A stretch of 64,000 bases of DNA from Escherichia coli (GTDB taxonomy: Bacteria; Pseudomonadota; Gammaproteobacteria; Enterobacterales; Enterobacteriaceae), in the NCBI RefSeq assembly GCF_022846255.1, contig NZ_AP025682.1; one strand, given 5' to 3'. How positions within the stretch are numbered: position 1 is the first letter of the stretch; every line of letters starts with the position of its first letter. This document shows, piece after piece, positions 26,239 through 27,503 of this stretch. Made by a program: the position numbers and the translations under genes. Below the pieces are notes generated by a model, which had not been told where the DNA came from, did no database searches, and saw only the letters and a program-made list of their open reading frames with translations.

Positions 26239-27503
26239 TGGCGGGGTTAAATAAGTATCGGGCGTATCCGGAGTACAAGGATTCTGGGGTGGAGTGGTTG
26301 GGGGAGATACCAGTCCATTGGAATATAAATCGGTTAGGACATTTTTTTGAGGAACGTAGAGAAAAGGTTAGTGATAAGGATTTCCCAGCATTATCAGTCA
26401 CAATGCAAGGGATTGTTCCTCAGCTTGAAACAGCAGCTAAAACGGATGCTGGAGACAATCGTAAATTAGTTTTAAAAGATGATTTTGTAATAAATAGTCG
26501 TTCTGACAGAAAAGGTTCAGCCGGTGTATCTCGGTTAAATGGCTCTGTTTCATTAATTAGCATAGTCATGCAACCAAAAAAAATAAATGTCAATTTTGCC
26601 CATCACCTACTCCGAAGCTATCCCTTCCAGGAAGAGTTTTATCGCTATGGGAAAGGAATCGTAGCAGATCTGTGGAGCACTAATGCCTCCGAGATGAAAA
26701 ATATACTACTCCCTGAAATTCCTGGCAGCGAAAGTGAAAATATTGCAAATTTTCTCAACTATGAAACCGCAAAAATCGATATCCTGATCGAGAAACAACA
26801 ACAACTTATTGAACTGCTGAAAGAAAAACGTCAGGCCGTGATTAGCCATGCGGTGACCAAAGGGCTAAATCCTGATGTGCCGATGAAAGATTCTGGGGTT
26901 GAGTGGTTGGACGAAATCCCTGAACACTGGAGGATATGCAAATTAAAAAACCTAGCTAAAATATGTAATGGACAGGATTATAAACTCGTTCAAGCAGAAA
27001 CCGGTTATCCAGTAATAGGCTTCGGGGGGCAGTTTGCATGGGCGAATACTTTTCTATATGATAAACCATCAGTCCTCTTGGGTAGAAAGGGTACAATTGA
27101 TAAACCATTGTATATAGACAAGGCATTTTGGACCGTCGATACAATGTATTACACGGAAGTATTTGATTGCATTATAGAGAAATATTTATATTATTTAGCA
27201 CTGACAATTCAGTTTAATCGTTATGCAACTAATACCGCACTGCCTAGTATGACTCAAGAACACTTAGGTAATTACTCATTTTCATTGTCATTCAACCTCA
27301 GTGAGCAAAAACTAATAATTAATAGCATTGAAAAATCATTAATTAAAATAGATGCCCTAACCGAAAAACAGTTAAAACAAATCGAACTCCTCAAAGAACG
27401 CCGCACCGCCCTTATCTCCGCCGCCGTCACCGGCAAAATAGATCTCCGCAACTGGACCGCCCCCATCGCCAAAACGGAAGCACCCACGGAGGCCAGCGCA
27501 TGA
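26238..27503 (+). CDS. hsdS: Type I restriction-modification specificity subunit S
   Basis: 421 aa; two AT-rich target-recognition domains separated by conserved repeats ([15 protein letters not shown] / [26 protein letters not shown] / [11 protein letters not shown]); TGATG overlap with hsdM. Confidence 0.85.
   Translation: [421 protein letters not shown]

Follow-up and report, generated by a model that had tools for sequence, protein, structure and literature searches.

This report concerns hsdS, the gene that encodes a Type I restriction-modification (R-M) system's specificity subunit, and the repeated segments inside it. The gene lies in a 64-kb stretch of Escherichia coli DNA (RefSeq assembly GCF_022846255.1, contig NZ_AP025682.1), referred to here as the window; all coordinates are window positions. 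The E. coli immigration control region takes up the part between 19 and 35 kb. It holds an operon with the gene order hsdM-hsdS-hsdR that encodes a genuine Type I R-M system (Table 1). The hsdS reading frame runs from 26238 to 27503 on the plus strand: its start overlaps the hsdM stop by 1 nucleotide (nt), and its stop overlaps the hsdR start by 4 nt (ATGA). For hsdM, the mechanical open reading frame (ORF) begins at 23884, as against 23893 in the RefSeq annotation of allelic loci. Three minus-strand ORFs (26207-26401, 26956-27144 and 27272-27535) overlap the well-supported hsdS and were taken as mechanical. A 16-kb query matched 5,400 of 5,426 complete RefSeq E. coli genomes; the hsdMSR family is carried by 114 of the 5,426, at the same locus each time and at about 97% identity.

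Table 1. Features of the window. L numbers denote comparison loci; TRD, target recognition domain; aa, amino acids; x and y, the repeated segments of hsdS
Feature	Position	Strand	Remarks
hsdM	23893-26238	+	781 aa per RefSeq annotation of relatives; Pfam HsdM_N 4.7e-27, N6_Mtase 2.8e-58
hsdS	26238-27503	+	421-aa specificity subunit; x1-TRD1-y1-linker-x2-TRD2-y2-tail; Pfam Methylase_S 4.3e-10 at aa 228-383
x1 core (KDSGVEWL)	26277-26300	+	N-terminal repeat copy, left edge of TRD1 cassette; N-terminal copies 22.5/24 nt between alleles
Distal part of repeat copy 1 (GEIPVHWNI)	26301-26327	+	co-varies with TRD1; cassette, not frame
TRD1 cassette	26301-26723	+	AT-rich, 36-41% GC; 38-40% nt identity to L001, L002 and L004, about 98.5% to L011, L013 and L015
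y1, central conserved region, helix D1	26724-26861	+	aa 163-208; AF2 helix, pLDDT >90; nearly invariant among alleles; main inter-allele crossover zone
Linker after helix D1	26862-26885	+	97-100% identical in all alleles compared; mirrors 12-residue C-terminal stretch
x2 core (KDSGVEWL)	26886-26909	+	central repeat copy, left edge of TRD2 cassette
Distal part of repeat copy 2 (DEIPEHWRI)	26910-26936	+	co-varies with TRD2
TRD2 cassette	26910-27296	+	about 39-41% GC in first half, 30-32% in second half; 99.5-99.8% nt identity to L001 and L002
y2, distal helix D2	27297-27428	+	aa 354-397; AF2 helix; protein-level repeat of y1
Near-identical block	26817-27558	+	part of y1, TRD2, y2, first 55 nt of hsdR; shared with FHI_NMBU_03 (L001) and DETEC-P881 (L002)
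hsdR	27500-30763	+	1087 aa; Pfam HSDR_N, ResIII, SWI2_SNF2, T1R_D3-like
yjiA-like CobW GTPase	19216-20256		neighbour of Type I region
Fic-like ORF (244 aa) and BrnA-antitoxin-like ORF (122 aa)	20290-21465	-	between yjiA and GmrSD
GmrSD-type (Type IV) restriction gene	21509-23608	-	699 aa, additional C-terminal DUF5655 domain
AT-rich membrane ORF	30829-31542	+	237 aa, multi-pass predicted, 23-31% GC, directly 3' of hsdR
yjiR	31959-33371		downstream of hsdR and membrane ORF
YhgA/Rpn-family gene	33614-34570	-	intact, 318 aa; Transposase_31 E 4.5e-86

HsdS reads as two half-subunit copies

A first-pass annotation, made from the sequence alone, had called the middle gene hsdS and had placed repeats around its TRDs. 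Both calls stand, the first on the strength of a Pfam match, of structural matches and of the operon itself. Pfam Methylase_S (PF01420) matches TRD2 with 40.5 bits against a cut-off of 22. Searching the Protein Data Bank (PDB) by sequence gave a marginal match to 1YF2 alone (E 0.009), and we therefore used fold comparison to confirm the HsdS fold. The best Foldseek matches were all solved HsdS structures: 1YF2 (E 2.4e-15), 3OKG, 5YBB, 2Y7C (EcoKI), 1YDX and 7BST (EcoR124I). The AlphaFold2 (AF2) model has a mean predicted local distance difference test (pLDDT) score of 76. It contains two long helices, at residues 163-208 and 354-397, both with pLDDT >90. Matching short strands follow each x motif, at residues 13-15, 23-25 and 29-32 in the first half of the protein and at residues 216-218, 226-228 and 232-235 in the second.

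When the HsdS C-terminus is joined to the N-terminus, the product resembles the central junction; the gene therefore reads as two half-subunit copies, each of the form x-TRD-y. Two x motifs are present in 115 of 131 relatives, and the x/y frame is also kept in distant HsdS proteins. The literature describes the same organization, as a direct-repeat S1-D1~S2-D2 arrangement of HsdS in a review of Type I systems (PMC3874165) and as the scheme x-(TRD1)-y-x-(TRD2)-y in Furuta et al. 2011 (PMC3077401).

We propose that HsdS is an ancient internal duplication of such a half-subunit. The x segment would be KDSGVEWL, running into the first TRD strands, and y would be a helix of about 45 residues ending in ...LLKE(K/R)RxAxISxAVT. 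Going by solved HsdS structures and the model, the two y helices would pack antiparallel and set a fixed TRD-TRD distance, each half would dock one HsdM, and selection on the protein would keep x1 like x2 and y1 like y2. Bipartite recognition, with one half-site per TRD, is predicted for the window HsdS.

Both TRDs differ from the rest of the operon in composition. The first-pass annotation had described the first TRD as AT-rich, and so it is: its GC content lies well under the 50-57% of hsdM and hsdR. TRD2 is AT-rich as well, and the hsdM and hsdR values are above those of both domains.

The first repeat pair holds at the DNA level

The segments 26277-26327 and 26886-26936 form a direct repeat of 51 nt with 76% identity, in frame and spaced by 609 nt, or 203 codons. 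Could such a match arise by chance? The best ungapped 51-nt match within hsdS is this one, at 39/51; 200 codon shuffles of the gene gave a mean of 28.5 (standard deviation 1.0) and a maximum of 31, so that 39 was never attained. In favour of a chance or compositional match without biological meaning, several further short families with two copies in hsdS (D2-D9) are at chance level. The pair is in frame, however, and recurs in the relatives and distant HsdS proteins mentioned above. We regard the chance explanation as refuted, with hardly any probability left to it. The first-pass annotation had reported the pair as DNA repeats, and they are real ones; its second copy was placed 3 nt off, at 26889-26933 instead of 26886-26930. 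One of the chance-level families, D9 (26773-85 and 27379-91, spacing 606), was considered as a DNA trace of the y repeat and rejected, because its register does not match that of the protein alignment (KIDIL against QIELL).

Most of the x1/x2 identity can be traced to the protein. Across 15 codons the copies agree at 35/45 nt and 13/15 aa. At identical degenerate residues the same codon is used in 5 of 11 cases, against 4.5 expected from operon codon usage; hence most of the DNA identity is imposed by the conserved peptide. The 24-nt core that encodes KDSGVEWL is tighter, with 22/24 nt shared between x1 and x2. Within the core, the codons for DSGVEL are the same in 5 of 6 cases against 2.1 expected (post-hoc P of about 0.02). 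The longest exact run between x1 and x2 is 11 nt.

Only the core is conserved between alleles; the 21 nt that follow it on the 3' side travel with the TRD. The GEIPVHWNI stretch recurs, with at most 2-3 substitutions, only in the alleles that share TRD1 (L011, L013 and L015) and differs in the others. Likewise, DEIPEHWRI is identical only in the alleles that share TRD2 (L001 and L002).

One allele departs from this frame. The hsdS of E. coli GF43 (L009, 3521-4804) has no N-terminal x motif and starts MATYKNYQQTNLLGLEILPSHW, with the central x, y1 and y2 retained. The N-terminal x copy is therefore dispensable or replaceable, going by this allele.

The second repeat pair holds at the protein level

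The first-pass annotation had also reported 11-residue repeats after each TRD. The motifs at 26814-26846 and 27387-27419 share 8/11 aa but only 19/33 nt. Over the full helix (residues 164-203 against 355-394), 21/40 aa are identical (pairwise blastp E 1e-7), and 63/120 nt (52.5%). A matching HAVTKGL stretch starts within y1, ahead of the linker. We read y1/y2 as a repeat of the protein, not of the DNA. On proper alignment, then, neither annotated pair is absent: the first holds at the DNA level, and the second only at the protein level.

TRDs are exchanged between alleles

Comparison of hsdS with its alleles points to shuffling between them. By megablast, none of the 114 E. coli genomes that carry the family covers 80% or more of the window hsdS. 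In pairwise blastn with ten alleles, the alignments are confined to hsdS nt 1-74, about 502-711 and about 1104-1266, except that L001 and L002 match at 98-99% all the way from nt about 502 to the end. Over TRD1, nucleotide identity to the window is 38-40% for L001 and L002 and about 98.5% for L011, L013 and L015. Over TRD2, it is 99.5-99.8% for L001 and L002, 37-47% for L011, L013 and L015, and 35-47% for all other alleles compared.

The same pattern appears among the 120 best protein matches, where identity is binary for each segment. Both window TRDs are carried by P0001-P0006, the first of which is an identical protein found in public E. coli records. A large group (P0009-P0052, P0065 and P0066-70) has TRD2 at 98-99% and TRD1 at 19-26%; conversely, P0053, P0057, P0071, P0073 and P0075 have TRD1 at 99% and TRD2 at 24-25%. 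Proteins from Citrobacter, Klebsiella and Xenorhabdus share TRD1 at 80-89%, and their TRD2s are unrelated. Clustering yielded 24 TRD clusters in 27 combinations: the window type of TRD1 is combined with 16 other TRD2 clusters, and the window type of TRD2 with 4 other TRD1 clusters. The window's own pairing is absent among the 5,426 complete RefSeq genomes, the identical protein being in other public records. As judged from the alleles, these mosaics show that TRD1 and TRD2 have been replaced independently of each other.

Breakpoints can be placed. Across the 742 nt from 26817 to 27558 the window differs by 1 mismatch from L001 and by 5 from L002, and the flanks are 5-10% divergent. The left breakpoint lies in the y1 helix, at 26786-26816, and the right one within the first 55 nt of hsdR. 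This block, in our interpretation, is a tract of recombination or of co-ancestry. Immediately behind each x core the TRDs begin to diverge, at 26299-26312 and 26907-26911. The reshuffling of TRDs that the first-pass annotation expected was borne out between strains, with breakpoints in the conserved regions, and TRD shuffling at this locus is strongly supported.

The edges of the neighbouring genes differ from their bodies. The end of hsdM (26101-26237, about 140 nt) and the start of hsdR (27504-27803, about 300 nt) are 88-94% identical between alleles, with one value of 99.3%, and the gene bodies are about 93-97% identical. The diverged flanks would be consistent with hitch-hiking alongside exchanged TRD cassettes.

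We suggest the following course of events. Incoming DNA from another strain or genus would recombine with the resident operon where alleles are conserved: in hsdM-3'/hsdS-5' up to the x1 core, in the central region of about 150 nt from y1 to the x2 core, and in y2-tail/hsdR-5'. The window allele would be one rare product of this process, combining a TRD1 type common in Citrobacter and Klebsiella with a TRD2 type common in E. coli.

The internal repeats show no sign of recent recombination with each other

The first-pass annotation had cast the repeats within hsdS as substrates for the exchange that reshuffles TRDs. This was not borne out; the traceable exchanges join equivalent regions of different alleles. 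Perhaps x1 and x2 nonetheless convert or cross over with each other? For the 24-nt core, 13 further alleles gave an identity of 22.5/24 among N-terminal copies and 23.4/24 among central copies. Position-specific substitutions (A[A/G]G...GTG/ATG in the N-terminal copy, AAA...GTT in the central copy) are kept in every motif-bearing allele examined. N-terminal and central cores are 20.2/24 identical within alleles and 20.2/24 between alleles. Since the two values are equal, there is no sign of x1-x2 conversion or crossing-over, and we rejected concerted evolution of x1 and x2 across these 13 alleles. Recent x1-x2 exchange is, on these comparisons, not supported.

The length of the repeats points the same way. 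RecA-dependent exchange in E. coli usually needs about 20-30 bp of homology to be efficient. With at most 11 exact nt, x1/x2 fall well below this, and we infer that their shortness and divergence keep them from being a significant substrate for RecA crossing-over. An x1-x2 crossover would in any case delete TRD1, not reshuffle the TRDs. Taken alone, internal direct repeats of hsdS are no evidence of intragenic shuffling.

A programmed form of shuffling was also weighed, in which phase-variable hsdS genes recombine with silent cassettes, as in S. pneumoniae SpnD39III and in Mycoplasma pulmonis. Conserved repeats that bracket TRDs are the recombination sites in those systems too. Such systems draw on further hsdS copies, and the first-pass annotation had proposed a look for half-gene fragments. 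Searches of the 64-kb window (tblastn at E <=10, blastn at word size 7) found no second hsdS copy or fragment besides the gene itself and the x1/x2 cross-match, and in all 114 E. coli genomes that carry the family a single place matches. The orientation of the repeats is direct and not inverted; no notable inverted repeats were found, and hsdS has no tandem repeat, the central region included. The neighbours of the operon (GmrSD, the Fic-like ORF, BrnA, the membrane ORF and yjiR) include no recombinase, integrase or invertase. On this evidence from the window and the 114 genomes, we consider phase-variable shuffling effectively refuted, and its probability negligible.

TRD types occur at both positions in diverged alleles

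A more serious alternative is domain movement (DoMo), in which x1/x2 and y1/y2 act as substrates for conversion or crossing-over, inside one gene or with sister or incoming copies, that would move TRDs between positions and could also delete TRD1 or triplicate TRDs. The x-TRD1-y-x-TRD2-y layout fits the DoMo architecture, the synonymous identity in the x core is in slight excess, and TRD types turn up at either position. In hsdS of E. coli GF4-3 (L006, 4001-5422), at the same locus, the two halves align without gaps over 209 aa at 69% identity; with paralogous TRDs in both positions, this allele predicts a near-symmetric recognition sequence. The window TRD2 type occurs at position 1 in a Vibrio allele (P0080/L017), with 77% aa identity and, across 397 nt that begin exactly at x, 67.8% nt identity. 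In that allele, a position-1-type y follows the TRD2-type domain (32/37 to window y1 against 19/37 to y2).

The window TRD1 type likewise occurs at the other position. A search with TRD1 alone against 1.84 billion cluster representatives found 1,271 proteins, and we looked at the best 150 of these 1,271. In about 15 of the best 150 the TRD1-type domain lies in the protein's second half. Of 12 such cases inspected, 11 have a ...VT(K/R)G... linker ahead of the domain, in most cases along with an x motif, so that at least 11 representatives among the best 150 are verified as carrying the window TRD1 type at position 2. These representatives are distant, at 51-68% identity.

Against DoMo stands the age of every cross-position match: among the 131 relatives no near-identical cross-position TRD pair was found, and all cases are at or below 77% aa. 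The DoMo repeats in the literature are DNA repeats of 29-37 bp, longer than the exact x1/x2 match and unlike the y1/y2 pair. The position-specific x1/x2 substitutions are kept, and likeness within alleles equals that between them. No clean single- or triple-TRD derivative was found among the best 150 representatives; the short homologues (144-298 aa) were considered as natural half-HsdS genes and rejected as truncated or frameshifted fragments. We take the cross-position TRDs as a probable signature of domain movement or of ancestral duplication, in diverged cases with no current activity shown. DoMo through the internal repeats is thus an improbable account of this gene. The related proposal, that the x cores together with the protein-level y repeats allow occasional intragenic or cross-register recombination in hsdS of the E. 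coli immigration control region, with L006 and the Vibrio allele as products, seems to us equally doubtful. If it were true, an enterobacterial Type I family would join Helicobacter, Streptococcus and Mycoplasma, the genera in which DoMo is documented to date.

Relation to known systems

The behaviour of the window hsdS resembles the classical cases of TRD exchange. StySQ arose from StySP and StySB through a crossover that lay in the central conserved region (PMC3874165). As in the Type IA hybrids StySQ and StySJ, from StySPI and StyLTIII, and in the Type IC hybrids of EcoR124I and EcoDXXI, TRD1 and TRD2 assort independently in the window family. The two TRDs in direct-repeat halves, with conserved helical stretches between and behind them, and crossovers in the central conserved region as well as at the gene ends, are also shared. 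Unlike those hybrids, the exchanges described here are deduced from natural alleles and were not made in crosses.

The DoMo genes (H. pylori groups 2/3, S. pyogenes and M. agalactiae; PMC3077401) share with the window gene an x that starts each TRD and a y that comes after it. They differ from it in that its y is not a DNA repeat, leaving the 24-nt x core as the sole one (22/24), and in that neither recent cross-position movement nor single- or triple-TRD derivatives were seen. The window gene is closer in behaviour to the Group 1 genes of Furuta et al., which reassort via central and flanking conserved regions. EcoR124I and EcoR124II are another enterobacterial Type I case with an intragenic repeat: their spacer length switches when unequal crossing-over takes place at a tandem repeat of 12 bp (TAEL) in D1 (PMC3874165). 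The window hsdS, unlike them, has no tandem repeat and hence no such spacer switching, and its repeats, spaced by 609 nt, enclose an entire TRD.

By sequence, the system is far from both EcoKI (Type IA) and EcoR124I (Type IC). HsdS matches the EcoKI-type NCBIfam model NF007278 with E 1.2e-10 and 40.7 bits against a cut-off of 662. HsdM matches the EcoKI M subunit with E 2e-12 and that of EcoR124 with 8e-26, in the methyltransferase core only, and HsdR matches EcoR124 R with 2e-11 on 64 aa. HsdM, at 781 aa, exceeds the M subunits of EcoKI and EcoR124I by about 250 aa. Its Pfam and PDB homology covers only residues about 3-457, and the C-terminal 325 or so residues (about 25270-26238) gave no family match. 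The same architecture is found in Klebsiella (L016: HsdM 786 aa, HsdS 440 aa, HsdR 1082 aa) and in Vibrio (L017: HsdM 768 aa, HsdS 407 aa, HsdR 1083 aa).

KpnBI reportedly has a long hsdM (2631 bp), a one-base hsdM/hsdS overlap and an hsdS of about 447 codons. This length is not that of the window hsdM (2346 bp); the long HsdM and the 1-nt overlap are alike. For the Type IE family, KpnBI is the prototype (Chin et al. 2004, cited in PMC3874209). The window system may belong to the Type IE (KpnBI) family, which we offer as a lead and not as a result.

Neighbouring genes

The GmrSD-type gene is divergent from hsdM and upstream of it; in some strains with the same hsdMSR (L008 and L009) it is truncated or pseudogenized. 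Beyond it, the 244-aa ORF has a weak Fic/DOC match (E 3e-4, below the Pfam cut-off), and the 122-aa BrnA-antitoxin-like ORF comes next. The two may form a toxin-antitoxin or defence-associated pair.

Downstream of hsdR, the 237-aa membrane ORF is kept beside nearly all alleles examined; its sole family match, to DUF898, is sub-threshold. At a metagenome locus (L013), a SymE-toxin gene replaces it. The YhgA/Rpn-family gene occupies the yjiP/yjiQ position at the edge of the region. A published study (PMC4498929) links yjiP to recA-independent homologous replacements.

Discussion

Very probably, the repeats of the window hsdS make up the conserved frame of an ordinary Type I specificity subunit with two domains and with TRDs that are exchanged between alleles and not through the internal repeats. 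The repeats exist mainly because HsdS is internally duplicated and pseudo-symmetric.

Several points weigh against this reading. TRD1 has no Pfam Methylase_S match at E 0.01 or better, and its core is modelled by AF2 with low confidence (pLDDT <50, residues 51-108). The pairing of each TRD with a half-site is a prediction. The excess synonymous identity in the x core leaves room for a small contribution of homogenization at the DNA level. Finally, that the exchanges are RecA-dependent and follow horizontal transfer is something we infer from sequence mosaics.

Both the x-TRD1-y-x-TRD2-y layout and the allelic exchange of TRDs are already known biology. In this respect the finding leads back to the modular plan that textbooks give for Type I specificity subunits, and it carries little weight beyond annotation. 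It does correct a common over-reading, in which internal direct repeats of hsdS are taken as evidence of intragenic shuffling. The E. coli locus offers a live case of TRD cassette exchange, and the strains that share TRDs with the window allele (L001 and L002 for TRD2; L011, L013 and L015 for TRD1) predict the half-site of each TRD once any of their methylomes is known.

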